24,000 nt of DNA. It comes from Candidatus Heimdallarchaeota archaeon. Its GTDB lineage: Archaea > Asgardarchaeota > Heimdallarchaeia > JABLTI01. Every line of letters starts with the position of its first letter. Positions within the stretch are counted from its first letter, which is position 1. A program made the translations under genes and the position numbers. Positions 968-22,853 of this stretch are shown in pieces. Where the stretch lies: positions 17,317-41,316 of the forward strand of contig JAUWKS010000029.1 in assembly GCA_030614005.1 (NCBI GenBank). The letters run 5' to 3'. The notes beneath the pieces were generated by a model, which saw only the letters and a program-made list of their open reading frames with translations, made no database searches and was not told the DNA's origin.

Positions 968-1513
968 ATGGATCAAAACAATATTCTTATCTATGATGAA
1001 AAAAAAGAAGCAAATTGTGAACCCGATATTGATGAGGATATAATTGTTTATGATTTGGAGCAATATAGACAAAATAGAGAAGCAACTCACATCTTTTTGT
1101 CTGCATTTAAAGTGATGAAAAAGGATTTTGATATTTATCCATTATACTCGAGTAATATACCATTTATAAGTAAATCCAAACAAGAATTAGAATTAACTCA
1201 CTCAATAAATGATACATTAGCAAATATTGAAGAGAAAATCACAATGATAAATAGAAATTTCGATGAAAAAATGAACGAAATAATAAATCGATTAGAATAT
1301 TTTGAAGATCTTTTGTGCAATAATAATGATGAAGAAGAGATTATAGTAATCAAAGATTATACTTACGATAAAGCCAGAAAAATTATTGAAGATCATTTAA
1401 AAAGTGTAAAAAGAAAAGTACCATTAGAAGAATTTATTTTAAACTTTGGCATTGACTTAACACTTGCAAATCAGATAATTACAGATTTATTAAAGGAAAA
1501 AAAAGTGAAATAG
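968..1513 (+). CDS. Hypothetical protein (181 aa) with a possible C-terminal helix-turn-helix
   Basis: ATG preceded by AGGAAGG. Central coiled-coil-like stretch. The C-terminus VPLEEFILNFGIDLTLANQIITDLLKEKK looks like an HTH or winged helix (weak call). Confidence 0.5.
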   Translation: MDQNNILIYDEKKEANCEPDIDEDIIVYDLEQYRQNREATHIFLSAFKVMKKDFDIYPLYSSNIPFISKSKQELELTHSINDTLANIEEKITMINRNFDEKMNEIINRLEYFEDLLCNNNDEEEIIVIKDYTYDKARKIIEDHLKSVKRKVPLEEFILNFGIDLTLANQIITDLLKEKKVK

Positions 1514-3684: not shown

Positions 3685-5256
3685 TTATTTTTTAGATTCA
3701 ATTGTTAATAATGCGCTTTTTGAAATGTTTAATCGCTGTTTGATACTATCTAACTTTAACTCGAAATCATCCTCAGTATAATTAGTATTAGTAAAAACTT
3801 CAAACTTTGAAATCACATTTTTATCTGAGTCATATACTATAATTGTACTTTTTTCTGTTTGTAAACCATTCATATCAGGTATTTTTGATAATAGATTAAT
3901 CCTTAATTCGTGAGATTTTTCTATATCAATAAATGATTCATCTATTAATGTGTGAATTGTTTCCTTTTTCATGTTAAGATAGATAGCTATTAAAATTGAT
4001 TTTCTTAAATAATCCAATAGAGTAATAGAGAATTCTTTAATGCTCCCAAATTTCTCATTAATTCTTTTATGATTTTTCGCACCAATCGTACCCCCATGAA
4101 CGTATTTGCTTCTAATTTCATAAGCCTCCTTTATTAAACTAACAATTTTAGCCGGTTTATCTATAGATAAAATTCCAAGCAATTTTGCAATTCTTGATCG
4201 AAGCTTAAAGCTTAGCTCCCCAGGATCTGTACCTCTAAGATAAATCGCTTCTAATCCCATGATTGCATTAGCAATTCTTTCCTCATCAGTTTTACCATGA
4301 AAAATAGAATCCTTATATCGTAAAAAAGCAATTGAAAGGTAATCAACTTTCTTCTCTTCATTAATGTAGAAATTCTTTGGGAGTAAATTACTAAGTCTTT
4401 TCAAGAAACCAATTAATTCTTTAACATTATCTGGTGTTATGATTACTTTCTTTAAAGTAGGAAAAATAAATTGTCTGTTTCCCACTCTTACTGGAAAAAT
4501 TGGGTTCATAGTAGAAATAATGGAATCTGAGCTTAATTCATATCGAATGTATCTAACACTTCCAACTTGATATAGTATTATAATTGAAAGTACTTGTTCA
4601 ATCAGAATCTGAATTGCTCTTGGATTTCTAACTTCGCAAGTAAGGTTTAAGATTGCATCAGGGGGATAAAATAAATCTCTTTGAATAGCAAATGAATACT
4701 CGATTTTCTCAAAGTCTTCCTTTGAAGTTTGTTTAATCTCTAATATAGTTGAATTTACTTGAAATTCAAATGTAGGAGTTAAAACAACTAAATCTTTTAG
4801 TTCAATCTTTGCATATGAGCTTATGAGTTCATCATTGAGTTGCTTAAAGAATATATCTAATTTTCTTTTGATTATGCTATTATCAATTTTTTCTTCTTGA
4901 ATTGAAACTTTTATAATTGCATCTATAAAATCACTTTGCAATTTTATCTCATTTTCATTTGGATAATTTTCTTTTAACAATGACAATATTTTTTGATAAA
5001 GAGAAAATTCTAATATATCTTCTTTGAACTTCATTACTCTCTTATTACCATCAATATATTCAACTGGTTTGCTAGTCGTAGCAGGTCTTGCGCCTTCAAT
5101 ATCATATTCAAATTTCGTTACTTCTGTTTTGACAAATGAATTGTATATAATTGGTTTGAATTTAGTCTTTTCAATATTTTTCCGGACATAATCATAAATC
5201 TCTATTGAGTATTCCAATAAAGCATCTCTAAGGTTTCTAAATTTTTGATTGTTCAT
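3685..5256 (-). CDS. HEPN-domain protein (Apea-like HEPN at the C-terminal half, uncharacterised N-terminal domain); putative RNase
   Basis: 523 aa. Residues ~305-430 read LRYKDSIFHG...AIMGLEAIYLRG...LRSRIAKLLG...AYEIRSKYVHGG. They carry the HEPN Rx4H motif (R382 at 4111-4113, H387 at 4096-4098) in the usual helical context. Confidence 0.6.
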   Translation of the reverse strand: MNNQKFRNLRDALLEYSIEIYDYVRKNIEKTKFKPIIYNSFVKTEVTKFEYDIEGARPATTSKPVEYIDGNKRVMKFKEDILEFSLYQKILSLLKENYPNENEIKLQSDFIDAIIKVSIQEEKIDNSIIKRKLDIFFKQLNDELISSYAKIELKDLVVLTPTFEFQVNSTILEIKQTSKEDFEKIEYSFAIQRDLFYPPDAILNLTCEVRNPRAIQILIEQVLSIIILYQVGSVRYIRYELSSDSIISTMNPIFPVRVGNRQFIFPTLKKVIITPDNVKELIGFLKRLSNLLPKNFYINEEKKVDYLSIAFLRYKDSIFHGKTDEERIANAIMGLEAIYLRGTDPGELSFKLRSRIAKLLGILSIDKPAKIVSLIKEAYEIRSKYVHGGTIGAKNHKRINEKFGSIKEFSITLLDYLRKSILIAIYLNMKKETIHTLIDESFIDIEKSHELRINLLSKIPDMNGLQTEKSTIIVYDSDKNVISKFEVFTNTNYTEDDFELKLDSIKQRLNISKSALLTIESKK

Positions 5257-8147: not shown

Positions 8148-9719
8148 TTAGCTGCCAATTATTTTTGCTATATTTCTGTTCATTTTGTCAGCTATTTCTC
8201 TTCTTTCTTTGCTTTTCGCTTTTCCTAAACCTATTTCCGTGATTATTTTTGTGTATCTTCCCGTTCCACTTGGTCTTATACTTATTACAAGATTGTTTTC
8301 ATTCTTATCTTGAACGATCAAGTTTTGACCATCCAATGTTGATCTATAGATTACTTCATGTTCTTTTGTAAGATAGTCCATTATTTCCTTGGATGATTTT
8401 AGGACTTTTTCTAGTCTTTGTGGATAATTCAAATTTAACATATCTATTTGTGTTTTTAACACATCTACTGACGGGAATTCCGGTAGCTTTTCATTCTCTT
8501 TGAACCAATGCATTAGCCATAGTGCATGTTGAAATGGAGATTTCATGCAAATTGGATGTGATTTATTGAAGAAGATGTCTGTATAGTCCGCACCTGATAT
8601 TTTATTTATGCTTGGGTTTTCTGCTAGTAGTTCTGCTACTCCTAAAAAGAATGCGGGTTCTCCTTGTGCAGTTGCATAAACTTTTTTTGTATATTTACTT
8701 AATGCTGAGAGCATTAGTAATGAAATTCTCTCTTGTACTAGCACATATTCATCTGGTTTAGTTACTTTTGCTTCTGCTATTAATCCCGTTGTAAACGATT
8801 CTTCTTGATTCATTACTATTTTATCTTTTCCGATTCCAGGTGTTTTCACAAGAAATGTTCTATCTGCATCTGCATCATGATTGAAAACTGCTTGTGTCTT
8901 TTTGTAATATTTTTCTGCCAATTCATCCCAAATTTCTCTTGGATCCCTATCTGGTGCTGTTGGATTTAAGACGTTATTGTCAAGAGAAATATCTGCATTT
9001 GATTCTCTATCGATTATTTCCCATATCTCCCCTGCCATACTATGCCTGCAATCAACGATAAATTCTCCTTCGATTTTATCCATTGGAGTCACTTTTTTTA
9101 GCGATTTGAAAAATTCCTCCCTCATATCTTTTGTATCTAGTTTTTCAACAGAGCCGATATCTTTTGGGTGCACCATTTGATTTTCCCCAATCATCCCTTC
9201 AATAACCGGTGCAAGTGTTCTTGGCAAAAATCCGAAAATGCTATTCTTTTTTATGCTTTTTGGAAAATCAATTGTTGCGCCATTTTTTTGTAAAAGATCA
9301 ACTGCATTTCCAATATTTATTACCAATTTCAATCCCACATATTGTTGTGGACTATGACTTCTTCCGAAAAAGCATCCTGGTAATCCGTGCTTATAGCATG
9401 AGAACATGAACTCTGGTACTGTTACAGGACCATCCAACTCGATGATATTTATCCCACTTCTTCTCATATATTCTTTTGAGCTTATTGAAATTGACTTGTG
9501 TACTCTGCTTCCATCGTATCCAATGAGAACATCACTTTCAATTGTTTTTGCAAAACCTGTCGCGTATTTATCAAAGAAATCAGCATTATATACGGAATAC
9601 AAATCTCGAGGTCCATTTGTTCCAGTTAATTGAGCTAGCTTGATATCAAATTTATATTTTGAAACAAAACTTGGATTAGATGTACTTAATACTAGTGGTT
9701 CTAGCTTTGGGAGAGTCAT
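8148..9719 (-). CDS. Alpha-D-phosphohexomutase superfamily enzyme (phosphoglucomutase/phosphomannomutase/AGM1-like)
   Basis: Has a catalytic-serine-loop-like GRSHSPQQYVGLK (compare TASHNPxxxNGxK) and a metal loop HDADADR (compare DGDxDR). The ATG at 9719 follows GGTGA; the ORF is open to a TTG at 9764. Confidence 0.75.
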   Translation of the reverse strand: MTLPKLEPLVLSTSNPSFVSKYKFDIKLAQLTGTNGPRDLYSVYNADFFDKYATGFAKTIESDVLIGYDGSRVHKSISISSKEYMRRSGINIIELDGPVTVPEFMFSCYKHGLPGCFFGRSHSPQQYVGLKLVINIGNAVDLLQKNGATIDFPKSIKKNSIFGFLPRTLAPVIEGMIGENQMVHPKDIGSVEKLDTKDMREEFFKSLKKVTPMDKIEGEFIVDCRHSMAGEIWEIIDRESNADISLDNNVLNPTAPDRDPREIWDELAEKYYKKTQAVFNHDADADRTFLVKTPGIGKDKIVMNQEESFTTGLIAEAKVTKPDEYVLVQERISLLMLSALSKYTKKVYATAQGEPAFFLGVAELLAENPSINKISGADYTDIFFNKSHPICMKSPFQHALWLMHWFKENEKLPEFPSVDVLKTQIDMLNLNYPQRLEKVLKSSKEIMDYLTKEHEVIYRSTLDGQNLIVQDKNENNLVISIRPSGTGRYTKIITEIGLGKAKSKERREIADKMNRNIAKIIGS

Positions 9720-9821
9720 TTTTTCACCAATAAACAGCTTACTTGGAATTAGTTTTAAATTCAATAAGTTATTACTATTTTGTATATTTGACCTTTTCCG
9801 GCATGGAATTCTGGTGATATC

Positions 9822-10238
9822 TTGAAATCGTTACAATTGGGTGGTATCTGTTCAAACTATTCTTGTGCAATTTGCTGCAAAGAAACAAAAATGATCCTTT
9901 CTTCTGAAGAAGTACAAATAATCATAGATTGTGGTTATGATAAAGAGGATTTTTGTTATGTTGATGAAGAAGGTTTTATCCGCTTAAAAAATGTTAATGG
10001 TATTTGTTTCTTTTTGCGTGATAACAAGTGTATTATCTATTCTTCACGACCACAAGGGTGCAAATTTTATCCAATTATCTTTGATTTAGATACAAACAAA
10101 GCGATTGTTGATCCCGATTGTCCTTTAGCTGTATCTATCTCGAGTAAAACGATATCTACCTTCAATAAAGATTTAAAGAAATTTATTAGAAAAATAATGG
10201 AAGAAAGAGAAAATTCTTCTGAAGAGAAAGAGTTTTAA
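9822..10238 (+). CDS. YkgJ/UPF0153-family putative zinc/iron-chelating protein (CxxCxxCC)
   Basis: Has the N-terminal motif CSNYSCAICC and the downstream GICFFL...NKCIIYSSRPQGCKFYP typical of the family. A TTG start is needed to retain the motif. Confidence 0.7.
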   Translation: MKSLQLGGICSNYSCAICCKETKMILSSEEVQIIIDCGYDKEDFCYVDEEGFIRLKNVNGICFFLRDNKCIIYSSRPQGCKFYPIIFDLDTNKAIVDPDCPLAVSISSKTISTFNKDLKKFIRKIMEERENSSEEKEF

Positions 10239-10241
10239 TAC

Positions 10242-11030
10242 TCATTTTCTGATTTTCTTTTTCTTTGCTTCGAGTTTATTTGCTTCTTGTGTTTCCCCAA
10301 TTAAATGTAAAATTTTAATCGCGTTTGAATATTCTTTTTCAATAATGCTATCAAAATCAGGATCATTTTTCTTTTGATAGAACAGTGCTAAATCTTCATG
10401 TGCTTTTGCAATGTTCATTTTAGCTTTTTTAGCTGATTTTGCAGTTGTATCTTTTTCTTCAATAATTTGCTTCCTTGCCTTGGAATCAAAATCTTTGTTA
10501 TGAAGGAGTACTCTCTCGAGTAATAATGATACCTTACTGTAAAGATTACTTATTCTTTCAAATAAATGAATTGACCCTTCAACGTCATTATCATTCTTTG
10601 TTTGATTACTCAGATTCTCAAATATTTCAACCGATTGTTCATAGCAGTTCTTTGCTTTGTCAAAGCTCATTATATAGCTATACCCATCTGCAGCATCTTC
10701 GAAGTTCGAAGCTGCTTGTTTTTGATCTTTTCTAATAACTGCTTCTTTTGCAATATTTTCGAATCCAACAGCGGCTTTTTTCAAGCCAATTATTCCAATT
10801 ACTTGATACAGCTTATTTATCCTTGAAGCTTTATCAATTAGATTATTCCAGGCACGGATTGCTGCTAGTGCAAAATCAATAGCTAGTGCAAGATCATTGT
10901 TATCTTGAGCTAAGCCAACTAGATGTTCATATGTTTTTGCGGAGTCTTCCCACCTACTTGCTGCATAGTTAGCTTCAGCTTCCGACTTTAATTGTTTTAT
11001 TTGAGGCTTCATTCCCAAAACACTTTCCAA
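10242..11030 (-). CDS. All-helical TPR-like repeat protein, function unknown
   Basis: Repeated A..Y....W/Y.(D/E)(S/A)A..YE-type helices (AEANYAASRWEDSAKTYEHLV, FDKAKNCYEQSVEIFENL) and a Lys-rich tail. Starts at TTG 11030 or ATG 11012. Confidence 0.45.
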   Translation of the reverse strand: MESVLGMKPQIKQLKSEAEANYAASRWEDSAKTYEHLVGLAQDNNDLALAIDFALAAIRAWNNLIDKASRINKLYQVIGIIGLKKAAVGFENIAKEAVIRKDQKQAASNFEDAADGYSYIMSFDKAKNCYEQSVEIFENLSNQTKNDNDVEGSIHLFERISNLYSKVSLLLERVLLHNKDFDSKARKQIIEEKDTTAKSAKKAKMNIAKAHEDLALFYQKKNDPDFDSIIEKEYSNAIKILHLIGETQEANKLEAKKKKIRK

Positions 11031-11163
11031 TTAGAACAATACAATATTTCTTTAGAATTTTATGCTCTTAAACTCTATGTTTAAGGTAAGAATGAATATC
11101 TATGAATAAAAAAATAGTGTTTGTGAAGATTATTATTAATCTTCACTTTAAATACTTTAAACC

Positions 11164-12921
11164 TTACTCGGTTTCATATTCGTCTAAATCTACTGCATCT
11201 TCCCCTTCTTCTTCATCGAGTTCCTCTTCAGGCTCTTCCGATTTTTCCGAAGGAGTGCCTTTTGGTGTTTTTACTACTCTAACGAAAAAGAAAGTTAATG
11301 CAATTAAACCTATGATAATTGTTAACGCAAATGTGATTATATATGGTATTGGAACATCTAATGGTTCAGGTCCTGGAGGAAATACTTCCAAATAAAGATC
11401 TGTCGTAGTATTGTAACCATACCCTCTTTTGTGACCGACAATATTAATATAAACTGTTCCTCTGCCAATTTCATTTGTGTCAATTGTGCAAGAGAAATTT
11501 GTGTTATCAGTGGTTTCCATGTTTATTTCTAACACTATATTGGAACTTCGCACTACTCTTAGTGTAACATTTATCCCTTCAATAAGAGTATTATTTTGAG
11601 CGATATATGTAACATTTGAGTTTATTATATCCCCTTGATTAAGGGTAAAAGTACTCAAATCAAAGTTTGAATTTTGAATCACTGCATACATCTTTGTTAA
11701 CCATTGTATTGTTCTTTGGAAAAAGAATTCATTTTCAGGGTTTCGTCCCATTTGTGTATCATTAAAGATATTTGCTGAACCGATTGTTGCAATTCGTCCA
11801 TTATTCTTTGTCTCTGTTAAAACGATTAGAGTATTATTTAAACCAATGGTTTCATTTTCATCAACAACACCATTTCCATTTTCGTCTGCAAAAGTTGTTT
11901 CATTACCACTTGCTAAAACGTAACTATCAACAATTTCTCCAGCGACTTGAAGGTCATAGAATTCCAAGCTTTCTTCTATCCAAGTTTCATTTATTTCTAA
12001 CATGGGTCCAGCATAATTTATTGTTGGAACTATTTCATCAGTTAATGGCACATATTGATTTTCTGTTAGAATTGGATGATCCATGAATTCTGAAACAAAA
12101 AATGTTGAAAGAGTATTATTTTCACCAATTGGATCACTTAAATCGGTTGAATTTATGCACATAGCTGTTGCATTATCAAAATGGATTCCAAATGGTTGAA
12201 TTAGTTCATTAACGTTTGTAAAAATCGAATCAGCTGAACCTGCTATTAAAAGCCCACCGCCATCTCTTACAAACTGAGTTATTGCTTCAATTTCAAATAT
12301 GGTGAAATTTTTTGTTGAATCGTTTGGTTCTAAAATAATTAAAAGATCTATACCAGCTAGTGTAGAATTAATAACATGAGCATCTTCATTAAAACTGAAC
12401 TTGAACTCACTATCTTGAATCCAATTAACTAACCCAGAATATTTTGATTTTATTCCATTGTTATCAGTATTGTGTCTCAAGTCGAAGAGGATGTTTACTT
12501 CATCATGTCTAGGTAAGTCAGGGACATAAGGATCTTCTACATTAAAGGTTCCTGTTTCTGAACAGTTTACTGAGGAGTAAGTAAATTCTCCAATTTTGTT
12601 TGCAATGAATTCAACTACAATTGTTGTATTAGCTTCAATTACTTCATTTATACCGTACTCGACTATTACAAAAGTGTGACCTATATCTATACTTTCTATT
12701 GTAAGGTTTACAGCTGCGCTTTCTTTTACTGTAAATGATTCAGGAGTAAACGCTGTCTTTGACACATTGATGTGTAAATTGAACTCACCAACATGAAATA
12801 GATCAGGTGTTAATTCATCATCAATTTGACTCTGCATTGCATTTGCTGCTAGGCTCTCTCCAATAACTAAAAAGGAGATTATTGATATTATCATTAGTAG
12901 TTTTTTTATCTTCAATTGCAA
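11164..12921 (-). CDS. Secreted, membrane-anchored surface glycoprotein candidate: cupredoxin-like fold, then a GldG/DUF4350-like domain, a C-terminal TM and an acidic tail
   Basis: Signal peptide MQLKIKKLLMIISIISFLVIGESLAANA. FTPESFTVKESAAVNLTIESIDIGHTFVI...GEFTYSSVNC resembles a cupredoxin-like domain. LLIILEPND...EIEAITQFVRDGGGLLIAGSADS resembles a GATase1-like or ABC auxiliary domain. Roughly 20 N-x-S/T sequons. TM helix IPYIITFALTIIIGLIALTFFFV, then an EEPEEELDEEEGED tail. Confidence 0.6.
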   Translation of the reverse strand: MQLKIKKLLMIISIISFLVIGESLAANAMQSQIDDELTPDLFHVGEFNLHINVSKTAFTPESFTVKESAAVNLTIESIDIGHTFVIVEYGINEVIEANTTIVVEFIANKIGEFTYSSVNCSETGTFNVEDPYVPDLPRHDEVNILFDLRHNTDNNGIKSKYSGLVNWIQDSEFKFSFNEDAHVINSTLAGIDLLIILEPNDSTKNFTIFEIEAITQFVRDGGGLLIAGSADSIFTNVNELIQPFGIHFDNATAMCINSTDLSDPIGENNTLSTFFVSEFMDHPILTENQYVPLTDEIVPTINYAGPMLEINETWIEESLEFYDLQVAGEIVDSYVLASGNETTFADENGNGVVDENETIGLNNTLIVLTETKNNGRIATIGSANIFNDTQMGRNPENEFFFQRTIQWLTKMYAVIQNSNFDLSTFTLNQGDIINSNVTYIAQNNTLIEGINVTLRVVRSSNIVLEINMETTDNTNFSCTIDTNEIGRGTVYINIVGHKRGYGYNTTTDLYLEVFPPGPEPLDVPIPYIITFALTIIIGLIALTFFFVRVVKTPKGTPSEKSEEPEEELDEEEGEDAVDLDEYETE

Positions 12922-13314
12922 GTCTTAAACACCTCAAGATGTAAGAGTACGTACATTTAGCTTTTTTCGTTTGAATAAAACTTCAGTGCTACAATTTCTG
13001 CTTTTTTTATAGTTTAAAATCTTTTCTTTCGCTTTTTTTACTAAATACAATGTTTTCCTTTATGTAGTAGAAAATTATTCTCTACAAGTAAAAGGAAAGG
13101 GTTTTCCAGGTTTTTCATTCATCAAATGATGTCTTTTTAATCAATTTCTATTCCCAAATATCTTTTCGACGAAAAATCATTAGAAGATGACGCAAACGAT
13201 ATATTTTAATCGCGAATTATTCTTTAGTTAATAAGTTTAGATGATTTAATAAATCAAACTAAGCACAAGGATAATTAATTAAATGTTGAACCCTTGTATA
13301 AGTGAGTGTTAGCC

Positions 13315-13683
13315 ATGTCATCCCGAGTAGAACAAATTCATAATATTCTTACAAAATTAAAAGCAGGTCATGATGGTGTAGAAGGATGTCTCCTTGTTAC
13401 AGCTCAAGGATTACCTATTGATTCTGTTTTTGACGGTTCCACAGATGAAGACTTAATTTCAGCTATGACTGCAGCCATTTCTTCTGTATCTGAAAGAGTT
13501 ACTCAAGAGCTAGGAAAGGGTAAAATTAACAATATTTCAATTCTTGGTGAGAAGGGGTACATTATTTTACTTGATATAGCATCACGTGCTGTTCTAACCG
13601 TTCTTGCAAAAACCGAAGCAAATTTGGGTCTGATTTTACTTCTTGCTAGAAGATCTTGTACCCAACTTACTGAGTTAATCTAA
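13315..13683 (+). CDS. Roadblock/LC7 (MglB-like) domain protein
   Basis: GVEGCLLVTAQGLPIDS...LISAMTAAISSVSERVTQELGKG..NNISILGEKGYIILLDI...AVLTVLAKTEANLGLILL fits the Roadblock/LC7 fold pattern. The ORF is open from a GTG at 13306. Confidence 0.8.
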   Translation: MSSRVEQIHNILTKLKAGHDGVEGCLLVTAQGLPIDSVFDGSTDEDLISAMTAAISSVSERVTQELGKGKINNISILGEKGYIILLDIASRAVLTVLAKTEANLGLILLLARRSCTQLTELI

Positions 13684-13691
13684 AGACTAGA

Positions 13692-13994
13692 TTATATTGT
13701 TGTTCCTTCAAAATCTTCTTCAGAAGGAATTAATTTTTCCAATCGTTTAAAGAGTTCTAAAAATTCTACTCCTGTAGGAGTTATTCTATAGACTGTTAGA
13801 TTCTCATCTTCATCATCATAAATCAAATTTCTTGCTAAAAGGAATAAAAGAATAGGTTTTGCTCTATCTACTGGGAGATTCGCTGCTCGAGATATTCTCG
13901 TTAAAGGAAGATCTGCTTGGAAGTAAATAATTTTCAAAATCTCATTATAGATTTCATATTTTGATCTTCTGAGACTAGATCTTCGCCTTGACAT
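13692..13994 (-). CDS. Small archaeal winged-helix DNA-binding protein (HTH_45-like)
   Basis: RSKYEIYNEILKII...PLTRISRAANLPVDRAKPILLFLLARNLI...YRITPTGVEFLELFKRL shows the typical wHTH layout. Confidence 0.65.
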   Translation of the reverse strand: MSRRRSSLRRSKYEIYNEILKIIYFQADLPLTRISRAANLPVDRAKPILLFLLARNLIYDDEDENLTVYRITPTGVEFLELFKRLEKLIPSEEDFEGTTI

Positions 13995-14170
13995 TTAGTA
14001 ACCCTTCTTGTTTTTGTCTTATTGTTCAATTCTTTATCAAAGATAATAATGTTTTGGAATTCGAAGACATTTTCATTTATTTAACAAAAAACTAATAATA
14101 TTTGAATAAATTGAATATCATTGAATATACTAAGTCTTTGGTTGGATGAATACTGAATTATTTTGTCTAT

Positions 14171-14449
14171 ATGGTTAAATGTGCTGATAACACCCTTTAC
14201 ACAGGATATACAAGTAACTTAGAGCAACGTATAAAGCAACATAATTCTGGATCACAAGGAGCCCGATATACTAAAACTAGAAGACCAGTTAAATTAGTTT
14301 TTGTCGAAATTTATCAATCACAAAGAGAAGCAATAAAACGAGAGCTTGCTATTAAGAAACGCTCTCGAGAAGAGAAATTAAATTTAATCAAATTATCACC
14401 CATAAAACCACCAGTATTTTATGATACTGAGAACGACAATTCTAAGTAA
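14171..14449 (+). CDS. GIY-YIG nuclease-superfamily protein (YhbQ/UPF0213-like)
   Basis: (YFVY)MVKCADNTLYTGYTSNLEQRIKQHNSG...ARYTKTRRPVKLVFVE...REAIKRELAIKK carries the GIY and YIG elements, the conserved Arg and the Glu. Confidence 0.8.
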   Translation: MVKCADNTLYTGYTSNLEQRIKQHNSGSQGARYTKTRRPVKLVFVEIYQSQREAIKRELAIKKRSREEKLNLIKLSPIKPPVFYDTENDNSK

Positions 14450-14481
14450 GAATTGATGACCATGAAATACTTTTTTTGTAA

Positions 14482-15108
14482 TTAGTTTTTGATTTGATAC
14501 AAATCTATCTTTATTACATGTTGATTTTTCTTATGAAAATCATATTGCCTTGGTATCTCAAAATCCATTGATATGATATCTACTACTTCTGCGCCGTGTT
14601 CTTTACAGAATTTTCTAAAAAATTGTCTTGTTTTTTCCGCATGTGGATTAATTGAGTAAATTACTTGTGAATGTTGTAGAGCAGTAATTAGAAAATCTCT
14701 ATCTCGAGATACACTCTCTTTTCTCATTCCAAATGGAGGATTCATTATTGTTGTATTTATTTTCTTGAATTTTAATTCTCTAACATCACTACATATCCAA
14801 TTACAAATTTCCTCAAAATCGGTCTCCTTGCAATTAGTCTTTGCTACCGAAATTGAATTCAAATCTATATCAATTCCAAAAACATTTTTTGCGCCCAGAT
14901 ATGCTGCGCCAAGTGCAAGTATTCCTGAACCACAACCAAGGTCTAGGATATTCTTTTGATAGATATCATCATTTTCTATCCCAGCAATCCAGAGTAAATT
15001 AGCAGCTACTCGAGATGAAGTAGGATATTGTTCATATTTGATTTGTAGGTTAGGAATGGTCTCGAGATACTGTAAGAATATTTCAAGGTCTTTACGTTTT
15101 ACTCGCAA
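14482..15108 (-). CDS. METTL5-like (COG2263) SAM-dependent N6-adenine RNA methyltransferase
   Basis: SAM motif I is ILDLGCGSGILALGAAYLGA..VFGIDID and the catalytic motif IV is MNPPFG. The C-terminal ...EIPRQYDFHKKNQHVIKIDLY resembles METTL5 and its archaeal homologues. TTG start preceded by GGAG. Confidence 0.8.
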   Translation of the reverse strand: MRVKRKDLEIFLQYLETIPNLQIKYEQYPTSSRVAANLLWIAGIENDDIYQKNILDLGCGSGILALGAAYLGAKNVFGIDIDLNSISVAKTNCKETDFEEICNWICSDVRELKFKKINTTIMNPPFGMRKESVSRDRDFLITALQHSQVIYSINPHAEKTRQFFRKFCKEHGAEVVDIISMDFEIPRQYDFHKKNQHVIKIDLYQIKN

Positions 15109-15152
15109 TTATGAGTCTCCAAAATCCATATGCTGTTATATAGTTAGTATTA

Positions 15153-15191
15153 TTAAAAAGAAATATCTTGAAAGGAAATAAATCCTTTCAA
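15153..15191 (-). terminator. Hairpin plus T-run downstream of enolase
   Basis: A perfect 9-bp stem TTGAAAGGA(15168-15176)/TCCTTTCAA(15183-15191) with a 6-nt loop lies 20 nt after the eno stop. On the transcribed strand it is followed by GATATTTCTTTTTAA. Confidence 0.45.
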
Positions 15192-15210
15192 ATTAACAGC
15201 TATTTCTCTA

Positions 15211-16551
15211 TTAAATAAAATCATTGAAAGCAGTTCTGAACTTTTTACCAGGATAGGCAGCATTGGATTCCAACTCATCATGGATACGTAAGAGTCGATT
15301 GTATTTTGCTGTTCGTTCTCCTCGAGCAACAGAGCCAGTTTTTATTTGACCGGCACATAAACCAACAACCAGATCAGCAATACTTGTATCTTCAGTTTCT
15401 CCACTTCTATGAGAAACAACAACAGAGAAATTTTTCTTCCAGCAGAATTTCGCAGCATCAATAGATTCAGTAATTGTTCCAATTTGATTAATCTTCAATA
15501 GAAGCGAATTAATGGAGTTATTCTTGATAGCCATCTCGAGACGTTTGATACTGGTTACAGTAAGATCATCTCCAACTATTTGGACTTTATCTCCCACTTT
15601 CTTTGTTAATTCAGCGAAACCGGCAAAGGACTCTTCATCAAATGGATCTTCAATGCTAGCAATAGGATATGATTTTATCAGATCCATCCAATAATCAACA
15701 AGTTCACCTTCGGTAATTGATTTCCCATCAATATTATATTTGGAATCAATGAAGAATTCTGCTGCAGCTGGATCTAAAGCAAAACTGATTTCCTTACCCA
15801 CTTTATAACCGGCAGCTTCTGTTGCTTCCTCTAAGAGTGCAAGCGCTTCATTACTTGTGTCTACAGGAGAGCCAAAACCACCCTCATCACCAATATTTGT
15901 AGCTAATGGACCATATTTTTTCTTCAATATTTTTTTCAAGCTCTGGTAAATTTCTGCAACAGATCTGATTCCATCACGAAAATTAGTAAAATCTACAGGC
16001 ATTAGCATAAATTCTTGAGGAGCAAGCTTTCCGCCAGCATGTTTTCCACCATTAATAACGTTAGCCATTGGAATTGGAAGTAAAAACTTCTCAGAAGATT
16101 TTCCATATGCTAAATCGTATATCTGTTTGTAAAGAGGAATTCCATTCTCTTCTGCACTCAATTTACAAGCTGCAAGTGAAACACCTAACATCGCATTTGC
16201 ACCCAGATTAGACTTATTTGGAGTACCATCTAATTCTAACATAGTTGTATCAATTAATCGAACATTTCTCGAATCAAATCCTTTCACTGCAGGAAAGATT
16301 TTATCATTGACATTGCTAATCGCTTGCAACACGCCTTTCCCATGAAATCTCTTGGGATCTTTATCGCGCATTTCAAGAGCTTCATTACTACCTGTGCTTG
16401 CACCAGATGGAACAGCAGCGATAACAGTTGTTCCTCCATCAGAAGTCATTTCAACTTCAACTGTTGGGTTACCTCGAGAGTCCAAAATTTCTCGAGCATG
16501 AATTTTCCTTATCTTGAATTTTGTATCATCTGACAAATTAATAACATCCAT
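15211..16551 (-). CDS. eno: Enolase (2-phosphoglycerate dehydratase)
   Basis: IRKIHAREILDSRGNPTVEVEM at the N-terminus, then GASTGSNEALEMRD, SHRSGETEDTSIADL and KTGSVARGERTAKYNRLLRI. These are unmistakable enolase signatures over the full length (446 aa). Confidence 0.97.
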   Translation of the reverse strand: MDVINLSDDTKFKIRKIHAREILDSRGNPTVEVEMTSDGGTTVIAAVPSGASTGSNEALEMRDKDPKRFHGKGVLQAISNVNDKIFPAVKGFDSRNVRLIDTTMLELDGTPNKSNLGANAMLGVSLAACKLSAEENGIPLYKQIYDLAYGKSSEKFLLPIPMANVINGGKHAGGKLAPQEFMLMPVDFTNFRDGIRSVAEIYQSLKKILKKKYGPLATNIGDEGGFGSPVDTSNEALALLEEATEAAGYKVGKEISFALDPAAAEFFIDSKYNIDGKSITEGELVDYWMDLIKSYPIASIEDPFDEESFAGFAELTKKVGDKVQIVGDDLTVTSIKRLEMAIKNNSINSLLLKINQIGTITESIDAAKFCWKKNFSVVVSHRSGETEDTSIADLVVGLCAGQIKTGSVARGERTAKYNRLLRIHDELESNAAYPGKKFRTAFNDFI

Positions 16552-16633
16552 TAATTACTTGATAAAAGTTAATTTAGTTTTAGATAAAAATGTAGCGATT
16601 TACAAGTGTAATAAAAGAAGAAAAGAAACTATT

Positions 16634-16771
16634 TTAGATGCTTTTTCTCTCTAGTCTTTTTTCTCGATTTTTCACTATATACCCAAATAGGCTATAACCA
16701 TTGAAGAGTGCAATGAAAAGCATTCCTAAACCTAATAATACAACAATTAACCATCTTTTATCGGTATTCAA
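16634..16771 (-). CDS. Small single-pass membrane protein (45 aa; not in the ORF track)
   Basis: My own translation from a TTG gives LNTDKRWLIVVLLGLGMLFIALFNGYSLFGYIVKNREKRLERKSI, one TM helix with a basic tail. This is a weak call. Confidence 0.3.
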   Translation of the reverse strand: MNTDKRWLIVVLLGLGMLFIALFNGYSLFGYIVKNREKRLERKSI

Positions 16772-17270
16772 TAACTATCCCCATAATGATTGAATATTAA
16801 AATATTGCTAATTAGAAGAAGCAAGATTGTTTATATTGGAAAAAAATAATCTATAAGTTGACAATTTTCGCTTCGAATCTGGGAATTGAAAATGCTACAC
16901 CAAAAAAGCTCCTAAATTACTCTACAAATAAGTTCGAGCAGCTAAAAGTGCTAGATCTATTACAAGACACGTTTTCACATGTGAGGAATTACAATGTTAT
17001 CTAGCTGAACACTGTTAAGTTTGAAATCAAAAACTTGCATTAGATTTCATTGATGAATGGTTAACAACCCAATTGAATAGGAAGATTGTGAAGCAAAGAA
17101 CAGTATAGTTCACGTTATGTACTCTATTTTTGTCCAACAGTCTATTTATTATACAAAGTTTGAACTCAATAGAAATGGTTACATGAGTTAATTCAAGGTA
17201 TTTGTACGAGAAAAAAAATCTTTATATATGCAATCAACACAATTATTCCTTGATGTTAAAAGTTTCATTT

Positions 17271-19139
17271 ATGGGAATTTATTTGAGACGAAAAATATTT
17301 TTCTTATTAGTATTAATGATTTTGAATTTTGGCTTAGTAAAAACTGAATTGAATGGTGAGAGTAATACTCAGTTTATTGTTTCAATTAAAAATCAATCAA
17401 TTATAAATAGCTCCTCATATAGTGATTGGTTTGCTTTGGTTATTAATCAGCTTTATACGCAGGATTTATTGACTGATGATTACAATGAAACCAAATTTCA
17501 TTCAGCATTTATTGATGTAGTAACTAACGCAAAGTATTGGCCAGAGGAACTAGCGATAAATAAAGAGGAATACTTAGATCCCTCAGTTGAAGAGATTGTT
17601 GTTTCAACTCCAACTGAATTGAATGGTTCCCTTCTAATGTTTAATCCTTATTATCTAAATTATTATACTCCATATCTCACAGAATTTTTTCTGTTTAGCC
17701 TAGTTGATTCTTTAAATGCAACTACTAAATACCATTCATGGGATTTTTCAGAAGAAATAACACAAGTAGGAACAATTGAGAAATTCATTAACGCTTCACT
17801 TAACACATTGCTCTTACGAGAAGTCAATGGTAAAATAGTTGGTAGAACTTTTGATTACGCTAATAACTACTCTAGTATCAGCAACTTAAGATCTGCATTG
17901 AAATGGCTTGATTATTCATTTAATACTTCTTTACTAATAGCAACAATCCAAAAACAAATCGATAGTCTTTCAACAGTAACCTTCCCTAATTGGTATTCAT
18001 CAGCAGCTTATGGATTATTATGTATTGAAACTGGTCAAGAATTTTCTAATAATTCTCTTGTTAACTTTGGTGAATCAGTTATAGATTATCTTTGGAACAA
18101 TAAAGAGTTCACTAACGATGATGATTCAGAAGGTTATAAATTTACAATAGCACTAGATTTAGTTGATTATAATAATAGCTATGCAAAGGAAATAACAGAT
18201 TTCGGTATTAGTTTATTATTCCCTAATATGGGAGTTGATTTACTACAACCTATAGTGGCTTCACAAGAATACTATAATTATCTCAAAAATGATACTTTTC
18301 ATTCCATTTATTTATATTACAATATCTTTGACTTGTTTGAATTAATGGAAGTTTTGGATGAACATTATCCTGAAAAAAACTATCCAACAATTCAAAAGAA
18401 AATAATGAATTACTACTTCTCAATATGTTACTATTCGCCTGTATTAAATAGATATACCATGGATTATTCAACACATGCATCTCTACTTCTAAATGATTTT
18501 TATTCTAGTCAGGATATTTTATTTAGAGGTCATCTATTTTACTTGGCAAAACTCCTTGGGCAATACTGTTCTGAATTTGGTGCTATTAATGATACTGAAG
18601 CGCCTATGCTTGAAACATTCTATGCTACTGGAAAGAAAACAGTATTTACTGATAATGGTGTTTTTGTTAATAATCAGTTCAAAGCAATAGATAACAATTT
18701 TACATTAATTGCTAGTTGTGAAACTGAGGGATATTTTCTACTAAAAATTATCATGAGGGATGAGCTTTCTGGATTTGTGGATTCAAAATTTGTAATTGAT
18801 AATTCAACAATTTTCTCGCCATGTGACAATAGTAACAATACACTCTTACCCTTTCAGTATACAAATCACACTGTAACTAGTGTAATTAAGAAAGATTTTG
18901 ATCAGAGTATTTTCTATTATCTATATTCAAAAATGCTAGTAACAAAAGTTTTTGCACTGTATGCCTATGATAAAGTAGGAAATGTTAGGATATCAACAAT
19001 AATCTTTAAGCCGATAACTACAAATAACGAAGGAAGGGCTTATATCATAGGAATAAATACAATTTCAATAATGACTTTATATGGTATTGCAACGGTTATT
19101 ATTTGGCGAACACTTGAAAAACGAGTAAAGCGAGAATAA
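17271..19139 (+). CDS. Large secreted, C-terminally anchored protein of unknown function, sequon-rich
   Basis: MGIYLRRKIFFLLVLMILNFGLV looks like a signal or anchor sequence. A C-terminal TM helix (IIGINTISIMTLYGIATVIIW) is followed by RTLEKRVKRE. Many N-x-S/T sites. The ORF is open from a TTG at 17202. Confidence 0.6.
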   Translation: MGIYLRRKIFFLLVLMILNFGLVKTELNGESNTQFIVSIKNQSIINSSSYSDWFALVINQLYTQDLLTDDYNETKFHSAFIDVVTNAKYWPEELAINKEEYLDPSVEEIVVSTPTELNGSLLMFNPYYLNYYTPYLTEFFLFSLVDSLNATTKYHSWDFSEEITQVGTIEKFINASLNTLLLREVNGKIVGRTFDYANNYSSISNLRSALKWLDYSFNTSLLIATIQKQIDSLSTVTFPNWYSSAAYGLLCIETGQEFSNNSLVNFGESVIDYLWNNKEFTNDDDSEGYKFTIALDLVDYNNSYAKEITDFGISLLFPNMGVDLLQPIVASQEYYNYLKNDTFHSIYLYYNIFDLFELMEVLDEHYPEKNYPTIQKKIMNYYFSICYYSPVLNRYTMDYSTHASLLLNDFYSSQDILFRGHLFYLAKLLGQYCSEFGAINDTEAPMLETFYATGKKTVFTDNGVFVNNQFKAIDNNFTLIASCETEGYFLLKIIMRDELSGFVDSKFVIDNSTIFSPCDNSNNTLLPFQYTNHTVTSVIKKDFDQSIFYYLYSKMLVTKVFALYAYDKVGNVRISTIIFKPITTNNEGRAYIIGINTISIMTLYGIATVIIWRTLEKRVKRE

Positions 19140-19331
19140 TTTGAAGCTAATAACTGCCTCACTTTTTTTATTTACATTTGATTTTTGTTTTAGAAATGAA
19201 TTATCCTTAACACTAGCATATGTTACCTATCTTATAACTTCATTAAATTCTCCTTGGGTAAGCAGAAATAACTAGAAACAAGATTTGTTAAACAATAAAA
19301 ATAATCGTCTATGAGAAAAGGAAAAGAAAAA

Positions 19332-19469
19332 TGGTGCGGAGGGCGCGATTTGAACACGCGAACCTCTACAGGAAAGGATATCCTATTCCATCTGGCCCTG
19401 AGGGTTACTCGATCGACTTGATCGGGGATCTTAAGTCCTTCGCCGTTGACCTAGCTGGGCTACCTCCGC
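19332..19469 (-). tRNA. tRNA-Leu, anticodon UAA, with a 50-nt intron at 37/38 (19380-19429), CCA encoded
   Basis: The reverse complement reads GCGGAGG TA GCC..GGC G AAGGA CTTAAG [intron] A TCCTT TCCTGTAGAGGTTC GCGTG TTCAAAT CGCGC CCTCCGC A CCA. It is class II with a long variable arm, and the exons total 88 nt. Confidence 0.9.
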
Positions 19470-19633
19470 AATAGAATATATCAACAGCATCTCAGTAATT
19501 ACTTTTTGTTTTTTATTCTGTTAAAAAGTTTTGTGTAGAATAAAATATTATCATTTAGCTATGTTATTTTGCAAAGTAGCAAAACTATTTAAGAGAACTC
19601 TAATTTAGCATTCATTAGAAACTAAAGCTGTTA

Positions 19634-19752
19634 GCCGAGGTAGCCTAGCCTGGTATGGCGGTGGTCTCGAAAATCTTTGGTCGAGAACCTTTTCTCTCGA
19701 GTAAACCACTGCGTGCAAGCGCTCGGGGGTTCGAATCCCCTCCTTGGCACCA
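19634..19752 (+). tRNA. tRNA-Ser, anticodon CGA, with a ~32-nt intron at 37/38 (about 19672-19703), CCA encoded
   Basis: Reads GCCGAGG TA GCC..GGC G GTGGT CTCGAA [intron] A ACCAC TGCGTGCAAGCGCTC GGGGG TTCGAAT CCCCT CCTTGGC A CCA. The intron segment TCGAGAACC pairs with the exon segment GGTCTCGA, as a bulge-helix-bulge substrate would. Confidence 0.9.
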
Positions 19753-19929
19753 ATTTTACTAATTGGCACCAAAGTTAAATGAATAAATCAATGAATTGTT
19801 TTTGGGATTTTTCTAAAACTAAAATTCTTCTCATTTGGCTCCATTCAATATCACTCTCGAGAGTGTCAACTTTGACAAAGATTAATTCTGCTCGAGAGAA
19901 ATAAACACCACTAAAAAAAAGGAGAAGTT

Positions 19930-20325
19930 TTATTGAAAAATAAATGTAGAAATAAAACTTCCTAAGAAAAATATGTGAAGTGCTAACAAAAGACTGTTTG
20001 TAATTAAACCAAATTTTGCTATTTTTCTTTTTCCTTTTTTTATGCTAAGGGCACCTGTTACTATACCAATTATATTACATATATTAAAAGTAATAATAAT
20101 AGCAAGGATGCTATAGGTTCCAATATATTCCCAAGCATAGTGCATTATTATTATTAGTAACCACCATACTGTGATAAGGAAAAATAAACCTAAAGAAAAT
20201 GAAACATAGGATAATGTAGTAAATAGTTTTTTTCTATTAGTTTTTTCATTTGAATTAGTGTTAACTTCATTTAAACTTCCATTTTCTTGAGGAGATGTTT
20301 CTCCACTTATTTTATTTTCATTCAT
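19930..20325 (-). CDS. Small polytopic membrane protein (3-4 TM), unknown function
   Basis: A polar N-terminus is followed by hydrophobic segments (LFTTLSYVSFSLGLFFLITVWWLLIII, YSILAIIITFNICNIIGIVTGAL, LITNSLLLALHIFFLGSFISTFIF). The ATG at 20325 follows GGAG. Confidence 0.55.
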   Translation of the reverse strand: MNENKISGETSPQENGSLNEVNTNSNEKTNRKKLFTTLSYVSFSLGLFFLITVWWLLIIIMHYAWEYIGTYSILAIIITFNICNIIGIVTGALSIKKGKRKIAKFGLITNSLLLALHIFFLGSFISTFIFQ

Positions 20326-20681
20326 CAAAAGTCCTTACTCCTTTACATCTAAAAATAATTTTTCAGACATAATACCTTTTAGTACCCCAAATGTTGAAGT
20401 ATGCATTTCATCACTATAAAGATCATTGAAATTGTCTTTAATATCTATGCCAAGTGAAGTAATATGTTTTGCGTAGAGTAATTATGCATTATTGAAAAAT
20501 ATGTGTTCTTCACTATCAAAACAAATAGAATGTTTTTAATGAAAAATATGAATGAATGAATGTTTTTGTAACCTTGTTACACCTAAAAGGAGAAGTATTA
20601 CAAGCGAAGGTTTTCCAGACCGATTTTCACTTGCTTTTTTGCTTGAACAGGTTCTGCTGTTTATTATTCAACGAAGAACAT

Positions 20682-21857: not shown

Positions 21858-22853
21858 ATGGGTCATCGTAAGAGTAACGCACCACACCAGGGATCACTCT
21901 CCTTCAGAAGAGTCCGAGTTAAGACTCAGAAGGGAAAAATACGATCTTGGCCTGATTGGGATGGAGCCCCTAAGCTCCTTGGATTCGCAGGATTCAAAGC
22001 CGGCATGACGCATGTGACTGTCATCGAGAATCGAAAGAACAGTCCAATGTTCAACCAGGAACGCATTGTTCCTGTAACTATATTAGAATGCCCACCTCTC
22101 AAGGTGATTGGTATCAGGGGATATCGTTATACCCCCACAGGACTTGCTATTGCTGCTGAAGCAATGATCAAGGACCTTCCTAAAGAACTTAGTCGAAGAA
22201 TGATTCTTCCTAAGAAGTATGATGCCAAAGCACGACTAAAAACCCTACAAGAGCGTCTAGGGTCAATTTATGAATTGAGAGCTATTGTCATGACGAATCC
22301 ACAACAAGCAAAACTTCCGCGTAAGTCACCTGATATCCTTGAGATAAAAGTTGGCGCTAAAGAAATGACGGAAGGCTTTGAGTTTGTTAAATCCCTTTTA
22401 GGTAAAACAGTCACACTTGATTCTGTTTTTGAGATCGGTGAATTAATTGATACCATAGGTGTTACAAAAGGTAAAGGTATACAAGGGCCTGTTAGAAGGT
22501 TTGGAATTAAGATACTTCCTCGAAAGACTCGAGGAGTTAAACGAAAACCTGGAGCATTAGGTCCATGGACTCCCTCTCGTACTATGTACACGGTTGCACA
22601 CCAAGGTCAGCATGGGTACCATCAACGTACTGAGTATAACAAGCTCATTATGAAAATTGGTACTAAAGAGGAGAATATTACTCCTGCTGGCGGTTTTAAG
22701 AGATTTGGTTTTGTCAACAGTGATTTCGTAGTTATGAAAGGTAGTATCCAAGGACCACCTAAAAGACTCATAACTTTGAGGAGTCCGATACGGGGTAAGA
22801 AACCCGTAACTGCACCTGAAATATTGCAGATTTCCCTCAGCAGTAAAATGTAG
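21858..22853 (+). CDS. rpl3: 50S ribosomal protein uL3
   Basis: MGHRKSNAPHQGSLSF..., FAGFKAGMTHV, GVTKGKGIQGPVRRFG and GQHGYHQRTEYNK are uL3 signatures. The ATG at 21858 follows GGAG; the track's upstream TTG at 21816 would add a non-conserved 14-aa extension. Confidence 0.95.
   Translation: MGHRKSNAPHQGSLSFRRVRVKTQKGKIRSWPDWDGAPKLLGFAGFKAGMTHVTVIENRKNSPMFNQERIVPVTILECPPLKVIGIRGYRYTPTGLAIAAEAMIKDLPKELSRRMILPKKYDAKARLKTLQERLGSIYELRAIVMTNPQQAKLPRKSPDILEIKVGAKEMTEGFEFVKSLLGKTVTLDSVFEIGELIDTIGVTKGKGIQGPVRRFGIKILPRKTRGVKRKPGALGPWTPSRTMYTVAHQGQHGYHQRTEYNKLIMKIGTKEENITPAGGFKRFGFVNSDFVVMKGSIQGPPKRLITLRSPIRGKKPVTAPEILQISLSSKM

Follow-up and report, generated by a model that had tools for sequence, protein, structure and literature searches.

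Across the genomes of one family of Heimdall-group Asgard archaea a weak and continuing force favours the hexamer CTCGAG, acting on it as a complete word of double-stranded DNA. The DNA in question is a stretch of 24 kb from a Candidatus Heimdallarchaeota archaeon (G000:C7:17317-41316, the whole of which is called the window below), and the assembly that holds it (G000) comprises 3.62 Mb in 126 contigs with 33.5% GC. An earlier, sequence-only reading of the window had claimed an excess of CTCGAG and likened it to HIP1, a highly iterated palindrome (HIP) of cyanobacteria. The excess proved to be real and HIP1-like, and neither a genome-wide observed/expected ratio near 1 nor a full explanation by codon-pair usage, the two results that the reading had named as fatal to it, was obtained. 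The interpretation offered with it was borne out in outline only. Its claims of preferred T and A flanks and of an octamer consensus did not hold. What was found is a real, family-specific DNA-word bias of the HIP kind, weak yet pervasive.

The window contains 17 exact CTCGAG sites, where dinucleotide-preserving shuffles gave an expectation of 1.70 and a maximum of 6 (100 shuffles). It is also the CTCGAG-richest window of the genome (24-kb windows hold 7.75 sites on average, and at least 17 in 0.5% of cases). Sixteen of the 17 site starts listed earlier were exact and the last one was off by one position (22528, not 22527), and the count of 25 TCGAG pentamers on the plus strand, 17 of them preceded by C, was reproduced. 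Likewise borne out were the occurrence of the sites in three reading-frame registers, the one site within an intron-containing tRNA gene and the two in the spacer after it, and the five TCTCGAGA octamers at the places claimed. As a longer consensus, however, TCTCGAGA did not stand: given its heptamers it occurs at 1.02 of expectation, the flanks of CTCGAG carry at most 0.11 bit per position, and the T(-1)/A(+1) bias of the sites is mostly compositional. The overrepresented unit is therefore the hexamer CTCGAG and not a longer repeat, and a repeat element or extended consensus was rejected on the same grounds.

In the whole genome 1097 CTCGAG sites were counted, corresponding to one site per 3.3 kb. 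With a maximal-order Markov model CTCGAG ranks first of all 4096 hexamers, both by z-score (31.8) and by observed/expected ratio (1.66), and models of order 3, 2, 1 and 0 gave ratios of 2.47, 3.37, 3.93 and 3.48, respectively. The genome-wide count is thus 1.7-3.9 times the expectation, and not near it. All other palindromic hexamers have ratios of 1.19 or less, and none is strongly avoided (range 0.68-1.19). None of the one-off neighbours of CTCGAG is depleted genome-wide (TTCGAG and CTTGAG, 1.0-1.26 with orders 2-3). Words under-represented in the same genome include GATC (0.70) and CTAG (0.81), and the GC-rich palindromes CGGCCG, GCCGGC and GGCGCC are found at 0.68-0.70 of expectation.

Most of the sites are in coding DNA, for which 3070 long open reading frames (ORFs; 86% of the genome) were used as a proxy, with 70% of these coding sites falling in the register NCT-CGA-G. 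Under a maximal-order Markov model specific to each frame, the observed/expected ratios were 1.68, 1.45 and 1.81 for the three registers, with CTCGAG ranked second, first and sixth, respectively, among approximately 3800-3900 words. When synonymous codons were permuted within each gene, which leaves the protein sequence and the codon usage of each gene unchanged, 1028 sites were observed versus 384 expected (ratio 2.67, z = 33, rank 1 of all hexamers), and each register contributed to the excess (220 vs 148, 720 vs 216, and 88 vs 21). Of the arginine codons preceded by ..CT and followed by G.., 60% are CGA, as compared with 21-30% in the half contexts and 22% overall. The excess requires the whole palindrome and, given this difference between full and half contexts, avoidance of CTAG cannot account for it. 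Of the [SPTA]-Arg-[VADEG] tripeptides genome-wide, 27.8% are encoded as CTCGAG versus approximately 8% expected. No effect on protein sequence was detected, compatible contexts occurring at 0.98 of expectation.

Non-coding DNA holds 69 sites, with observed/expected ratios of 1.39 (maximal order) and 1.88 (order 2), and spacers of at most 400 nt hold 36 sites (ratio 1.69). The non-coding excess is thus real, yet weaker than that in genes. Codon pairs fail as an explanation, since the excess survives codon control and is found in all frames as well as in non-coding DNA. Altogether, the CTCGAG excess holds under five types of null model.

The sites are found on nearly all contigs, and the observed/expected ratio is 2.1-3.4 over gene classes defined by GC, by GC at third codon positions (GC3) and by length. 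They are placed evenly along genes, and no preference for gene position or promoters was seen. Next-neighbour distances follow a nearly exponential distribution (coefficient of variation 1.05), short gaps being slightly too frequent. No CTCGAG cluster was found near the two Orc1/Cdc6 genes, apart from the generally dense short contig C11, and the density in multi-copy DNA is slightly lower, although the numbers are small. The sole contig that is significantly CTCGAG-poor (G000:C10, 32.8 kb, 1 site vs 9.9 expected) has a GC content of 30.4%, carries genes for TPR, FG-GAP/beta-propeller and PAS-GAF proteins, and may represent a recent acquisition or a binning error.

The CTCGAG excess is a trait of one family of Heimdall-group Asgard archaea. 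With GAGCTC (CTCGAG backwards, and hence of the same composition) as control word, each of the 12 family genomes (11 from one genus and 1 from a second) had a CTCGAG/GAGCTC ratio of 2.3-3.5, and each of the 71 genomes from the rest of the class a ratio of 0.3-1.35. When codon usage was controlled for, samples of two genus members gave observed/expected ratios of 2.9 and 3.8, versus 0.61 in a 400-kb sample of a complete sister-family genome, and in the latter sample no context effect on arginine codons was seen. The enolase loci of genus relatives carry 8-11 CTCGAG and 0-1 GAGCTC per 7.3 kb, and enolase loci labelled Promethearchaeum carry no CTCGAG. A separate observation concerns codon usage: CGA makes up 16-22% of the arginine codons in G000 and its genus relatives G010 and G005, even outside CTCGAG contexts, versus 9% in a sister-family genome (G016).

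The sites are also better conserved than expected for such words. In 332 kb of G000 aligned at approximately 84% nucleotide identity with G010, the closest genome, CTCGAG is conserved in 56-66% of cases, as compared with 41% for all hexamers and 14-39% for compositionally similar CpG words, and it ranks 18 of 1645 words. Where the amino acid is conserved, 81-88% of the CGA codons inside sites are retained versus 67% of those outside (P = 0.008), and the third position of the NCT codon is kept in 88% versus 68% (P = 6e-5). Comparison of the sites with synonymous alternatives in orthologues, a check proposed with the original claim, thus turned out in its favour, as a given codon is better conserved within a site than elsewhere. 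Site loss is roughly halved by the force on the word. The differences in sites between close genomes affect all positions and comprise several change types, CpG transitions being the commonest.

At larger evolutionary distance the picture is one of turnover. G005 is a deep genus member (767 kb compared, 420 orthologues, 64% amino-acid identity, four-fold sites 42% identical), and its compatible contexts carry a site in 36% of cases where G000 has one and in 20% where G000 has none (odds ratio 2.4, P = 0.012). The corresponding control values, for CGA outside such contexts, are 21% vs 17%. Both site probabilities, 0.36 and 0.20, are above the neutral value of approximately 0.08, and therefore most sites turn over at deep divergence while new ones arise independently, well above the neutral rate; it is the density that is maintained, not the individual positions. 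The realised/expected occupancy odds ratio of approximately 4.2 corresponds to a scaled advantage of approximately 1.5, and the scaled strength of the force is about ln(4) = 1-1.5, of the same order as codon-usage selection.

The sites in the window are listed below, with register and encoded residues where coding, the gene and its strand, and their occurrence in relatives.

1147..1152: CTCGAG, register NNC-TCG-AGN, in an unnamed ORF, 968-1513 (+).
9605..9610: CTCGAG, NCT-CGA-G (Pro-Arg-Asp), in a phosphoglucomutase-like gene, 8148-9764 (-).
10139..10144: CTCGAG, NNC-TCG-AGN (Ile-Ser-Ser), in a CxxCxxCC gene, 9822-10238 (+).
10515..10520: CTCGAG, CTC-GAG (Leu-Glu), in an ORF, 10242-11030 (-).
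13886..13891: CTCGAG, NCT-CGA-G (Ser-Arg-Ala), in the winged helix-turn-helix (wHTH; HTH_45) gene, 13692-13994 (-); also in G010.
14364..14369: CTCGAG, NCT-CGA-G (Ser-Arg-Glu), in the UPF0213 GIY-YIG gene, 14171-14449 (+); also in G010.
14703..14708: CTCGAG, NCT-CGA-G (Ser-Arg-Asp), in the METTL5-like gene, 14482-15108 (-), gene position ~400; same position in most genus relatives.
15009..15014: CTCGAG, NCT-CGA-G (Ser-Arg-Val), in the METTL5-like gene, 14482-15108 (-), gene position 95; same position in several relatives.
15061..15066: CTCGAG, CTC-GAG (Leu-Glu), in the METTL5-like gene, 14482-15108 (-); none in the relatives compared.
15321..15326: CTCGAG, NCT-CGA-G (Ala-Arg-Gly), in the enolase gene, 15211-16551 (-), gene position 1226; also in G010.
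15535..15540: CTCGAG, CTC-GAG (Leu-Glu), in the enolase gene, 15211-16551 (-), gene position 1012; common to orthologues of 71-91% amino-acid identity.
16473..16478: CTCGAG, NCT-CGA-G (Ser-Arg-Gly), in the enolase gene, 15211-16551 (-), gene position 74; a site at 72-74 in most relatives.
16491..16496: CTCGAG, NCT-CGA-G (Ala-Arg-Glu), in the enolase gene, 15211-16551 (-), gene position 56; in most relatives.
19696..19701: CTCGAG, within the 116-nt intron-containing tRNA gene, 19634-19749 (+).
19856..19861: CTCGAG, in the spacer 3' of the tRNA gene, at the centre of a perfect 14-nt palindrome, 19852-19865.
19891..19896: CTCGAG, in the spacer 3' of the tRNA gene.
22528..22533: CTCGAG, NCT-CGA-G (Thr-Arg-Gly), in the ribosomal protein L3 gene, 21816-22853 (+).

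Nine of these sites lie within 2.6 kb (13886-16496) and form the top CTCGAG cluster of the genome, in a region with genes for enolase, a METTL5/PH1948-type rRNA methyltransferase, a UPF0213 GIY-YIG protein, an HTH_45 winged-helix protein and a Roadblock/LC7 protein. Both the cluster and the gene order are kept across the genus. The four site-bearing genes offer 7 compatible [SPTA]-R-[VADEG] (frame-1) contexts, and CTCGAG is used in all 7 of them. At the genome's own realised rates 2.36 sites would be expected (P = 8e-4), which is approximately what the most extreme of the ~1000 such windows should show, and the cluster is therefore the upper tail of the genome-wide process and no separate element. 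An origin, or a cis product of the GIY-YIG, methylase or wHTH genes, was rejected, the count being the expected extreme tail given the amino-acid contexts. Orc1/Cdc6 genes, moreover, sit on other contigs. The methyltransferase (14482-15108) was rejected as a DNA methylase, as it is a METTL5/PH1948 orthologue and hence an rRNA enzyme, and the GIY-YIG gene was rejected as the cause, since it encodes a UPF0213 protein with a homologue of 49% identity in a family without the excess. The second-densest cluster (contig C75, 6 sites in 730 bp) is located where the gene for pyruvate formate-lyase activase meets that for pyruvate formate-lyase, and was rejected as a special element because these are ordinary core metabolism genes.

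A few further features of the window deserve mention. The perfect 14-nt palindrome (19852-19865) might form a hairpin or be bound by a protein. The tRNA gene with intron (19634-19749, +, 116 nt) was recognised by an Rfam match of 44.6 bits but missed by ARAGORN, and its anticodon-loop region, ..CTCGAAA.., fits tRNA-Ser. Around it, 19319-19471 has dozens of short matches (70-91% identity) in each genus genome, including several G000 contigs, and 19875-20499 is 90% identical to G000:C9:60062-60678; these matches suggest that upstream of the tRNA there is a multi-copy element or an RNA gene that has escaped recognition, and that a segment has been duplicated. A tRNA-Arg(TCG), the reader of CGA codons, adjoins a truncated TnpB/Cas12f-like ORF (1959-2477, within the region 1801-2477), of which the C-terminal part of OrfB_IS605 and the TNB domain are all that is left. 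The ORF at 17202-19139 (+, 645 aa) has no Pfam match, is 81-83% identical at the amino-acid level in the closest relative, and contains no CTCGAG despite its length. Eukaryote-like parts of the window are an OST48 N-terminal/IFT52 GIFT-like protein with a cupredoxin-like domain (11164-12921, -) and the Roadblock/LC7 protein (13306-13683, +).

The properties of the word suggest what kind of reader may be behind the CTCGAG excess. The force acts on synonymous and non-coding positions, where it raises site gain and roughly halves site loss. Since the hexamer is symmetric and its half-sites are nearly inert, we infer a dimeric or symmetric DNA-recognising protein as reader, and most likely this would be a lineage-specific solitary DNA methyltransferase. 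Methylated CTCGAG might then be mildly advantageous, or favoured in repair, as a genome-maintenance or 'self' mark. A mark set by a solitary methyltransferase is our best explanation, though a tentative and far from assured one. A more specific version of it, which we regard as rather unlikely in all its parts, is that CTCGAG carries N6-methyladenine (m6A) set by a vertically inherited, solitary and nearly Heimdall-only N6-adenine methyltransferase, and that a process reading this mark in genome maintenance (repair strand choice, self/non-self distinction or chromosome organisation) selects for site density. If true, it would make CTCGAG the first 'iterated palindrome' of archaea whose writer is identified, and a lineage-private epigenetic word in a family of the closest archaeal relatives of eukaryotes.

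The search for a reader, writer or nuclease covered several enzyme families. No match to the XhoI-family nuclease (PF04555) was found in 21 genomes, which says little as 14 control genomes gave zero matches too, and Vsr and MutH likewise gave no match. C5 DNA methylase (PF00145) was not found in G000, and it was present in 1 of 11 family relatives versus 8 of 9 sampled sister-family genomes, a distribution that is the inverse of the CTCGAG trait. Among the N6_N4 methylases, one of 241 aa was rejected as class-wide, while another of 264 aa is confined to the genus. G000 encodes four large Eco57I-type N6-adenine enzymes, two of them with TaqI_C target domains; enzymes bearing TaqI_C were rejected as a class, being common in sister families. 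The 566-aa Eco57I-type enzyme of G011, the genome of the second genus, was also set aside, as it is as near to enzymes of another family as to those of the genus. No enzyme with a clean whole-family pattern was found among the candidates examined.

On sequence and structure prediction, the best candidate for the writer is a solitary gamma-class N6-adenine methyltransferase of 866 aa (G000:C74:5569-8169) with Eco57I and TaqI_C domains and an NPPY catalytic motif. Its gene is surrounded by housekeeping genes (ferritin, GatD/GatE and racemase). Full-length homologues, including the target domain, are found in 10 of the 11 genus genomes, whereas the other 72 genomes of the class, that of the second genus among them, show only weak partial matches. 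The target domain has 36 homologues in 5.8 billion proteins, and all but one of the source-named ones are from Heimdall/Asgard metagenome-assembled genomes (MAGs). The predicted fold of this domain (pLDDT 84) is nearest to those of M.BseCI (ATCGAT), CamA (CAAAAA) and M.TaqI (TCGA), and no match to a nuclease was seen for the N-terminal 240 residues, which are helical. The enzyme as a whole lacks a recognisable nuclease domain.

Several points weigh against this enzyme, and against a methyl mark in general. The likeness to TaqI and BseCI is one of general fold, and the sequence alignments are in the catalytic domain; CamA, which is equally close in fold, reads CAAAAA. The enzyme was not found in two family genomes with the excess, G011 and G002, MAGs that are only 75% and 69% complete, respectively. 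The clade association is a single evolutionary event, and many other genes would match the pattern; the genus-conserved methyltransferases of 264 aa (N6_N4, on G000:C71) and 791 aa (Eco57I/TaqI_C, on G000:C3) are equally eligible. Spacing is random (coefficient of variation 1.05), promoters and gene positions are not preferred and no cluster occurs at Orc1/Cdc6, and therefore no concrete function of a methyl mark is indicated. Finally, genes show a stronger excess than non-coding DNA does, a difference for which a methylase gives no explanation.

Possible, though doubtful, is a repair or mutation drive without function, in which biased repair or gene conversion turns near-cognate words into CTCGAG and restores damaged sites until an equilibrium is reached. 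Reduced loss together with raised gain is just what biased conversion predicts, and such a drive would be in line with a weak force that is nearly uniform across gene classes (2.1-3.4), with random spacing, with heavy turnover and raised independent gain at deep divergence, and with an unaffected protein sequence (contexts at 0.98 of expectation). The CCWGG excess in Escherichia coli is similar in size to the maximal-order ratio of 1.66 found here. On the other hand, C5 methylase was not found in G000 and is present in 1 of 11 family relatives vs 8 of 9 sister-family genomes, there was no match to Vsr or MutH, and we know of no archaeal enzyme with such a repair-drive property. The deamination neighbours TTCGAG and CTTGAG are not depleted (1.0-1.26, orders 2-3), the changes that separate the sites of close genomes are not confined to any one position or type, and a drive should hit unconstrained spacers at least equally, whereas the spacer excess is weaker.

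CTCGAG could also be the binding word of an abundant family-specific DNA-binding protein, active in the nucleoid, segregation or chromosome organisation and served by many interchangeable, weakly selected sites. This we consider quite unlikely, since spacers and promoters are not enriched, the spacing is not regular, and nothing ties a particular protein to CTCGAG. A palindrome with full-site synergy would suit a dimeric helix-turn-helix reader, and conserved density without conserved position would suit it as well. A family-specific and unusually conserved wHTH (HTH_45) protein is encoded in the densest cluster (13692-13994, -, 100 aa). It is 97% identical in G010, 74-81% in deep genus members and 72% in the second genus, with a best match of 34% outside the family, and it is far better conserved than its neighbours and has no solved relative. 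However, many genes will be family-specific, and the cluster at the wHTH gene is accounted for by chance and compatible amino-acid contexts.

Very improbable is a signal at the RNA level, with CUCGAG selected in transcripts, e.g. as the site of an RNA-modifying or RNA-cleaving enzyme, and with palindromy as a coincidence that puts the word in mRNA from either strand. The excess is indeed stronger in transcribed coding DNA than in spacers, and the usual strand test is inapplicable to a word that has no strand. But 1 in 64 hexamers is palindromic and palindromy is a hallmark of readers of double-stranded DNA, the short intergenic spacers show the excess too, and the position along genes is without preference.

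It is hardly credible that the excess is a by-product of codon pairs, of avoidance of CTAG or other words or of CpG effects, or an artefact of MAG assembly or contamination: the single register NCT-CGA-G does hold 70% of coding sites and CTAG, which NCT-AGA would create, is mildly avoided (0.81), but all three frames and the spacers show the excess, a CT prefix alone barely shifts the arginine codon choice (CGA 21-30%) while CT..G gives 60%, CTAGAG is at 0.94 of expectation, no palindrome is strongly avoided (0.68-1.19), and the signal is spread over nearly all contigs and present in 12 independent assemblies and 0 of 71 others. Codon-pair artefact, CTAG avoidance and CpG effects were accordingly rejected on the evidence of frames, shuffles, spacers and arginine-codon contexts.

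Palindromes of the restriction type are normally avoided in prokaryotic genomes, and HIP1, the only well-studied case of the opposite, is unexplained after three decades. A lineage-wide excess means that some protein reads the word often enough to shape thousands of synonymous choices. The Asgard excess adds a second case, weaker and phylogenetically sharp (12 genomes with and 71 without the excess), for which there is a short list of candidate enzymes and a quantified force (~1-1.5). CTCGAG can be used as a signature for binning the family and for recognising foreign DNA in it, and it biases the arginine codon usage of the family (CGA 16-22% vs 9%).

As to known systems, the avoidance expected of an XhoI-type restriction target was not seen, CTCGAG being enriched. 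For a Dam/MutH-type system candidate orphan methylases are present, MutH gave no match and the spacing is not even. Very-short-patch repair (Dcm/Vsr) produces a modest CCWGG excess in E. coli without selection on single sites, with an effect of similar size. It depends on a C5 methylase together with Vsr, and the search of G000 found neither; it also predicts depletion of the T-variants, whereas TTCGAG and CTTGAG are not depleted here. DNA uptake sequences (DUS) and uptake signal sequences (USS) are non-palindromic 9-12-mers with conserved flanks, often found as inverted pairs in terminators; CTCGAG, in contrast, is a palindromic hexamer with unconserved flanks and is mostly intragenic.

Methylases that recognise the exact word CTCGAG exist in archaea with all three chemistries, i.e. 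M.TliI and M.Hka19301II (m6A), an enzyme of Staphylothermus marinus (N4-methylcytosine, m4C) and M.HspBol31III (5-methylcytosine, m5C) (PMC11033074). They are listed there as type II or uncorrelated, and a site excess is unmentioned. In Nocardiaceae the same word is tied to a solitary, clade-conserved orphan methyltransferase and not to restriction, and clusters of the motif lie close to dnaA (Blow et al. 2016, PMC4752239). That is a local, non-coding cluster at the replication origin, whereas the excess described here is genome-wide and mostly coding.

The closest likeness is to HIP1 (GCGATCGC) and the alternate highly iterated palindromes of cyanobacteria (Elhai 2015, PMC4390886; Xu, Lawrence and Durand 2018, PMC5861425). 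Both CTCGAG and HIP1 are GC-rich restriction-type palindromes in lineage-wide excess, in all frames and in non-coding DNA, neither belongs to a longer repeat, and in both cases suspicion falls on orphan methyltransferases. In the selection test applied to HIP1, codon conservation inside versus outside the motif (PMC5861425), CTCGAG behaves in the same way, with better conserved codons inside. In magnitude, on the other hand, the likeness does not extend to the 15-300 fold excess and approximately one site per kb of the HIP1 octamer (PMC4390886; PMC5861425), as the archaeal hexamer is in 3-4 fold excess with one site per 3.3 kb. Nor are its sites mostly conserved in position at 64% amino-acid identity, and next-neighbour spacing is random in an assembly of 126 contigs. 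The periodicity reported for HIP1 is on the longer scale of tens of kb. The literature search found no report of CTCGAG or any other iterated palindrome in archaea, in keeping with the earlier remark that no description of such a motif was known for archaea of this type. The CTCGAG excess is a mild archaeal counterpart of HIP1.

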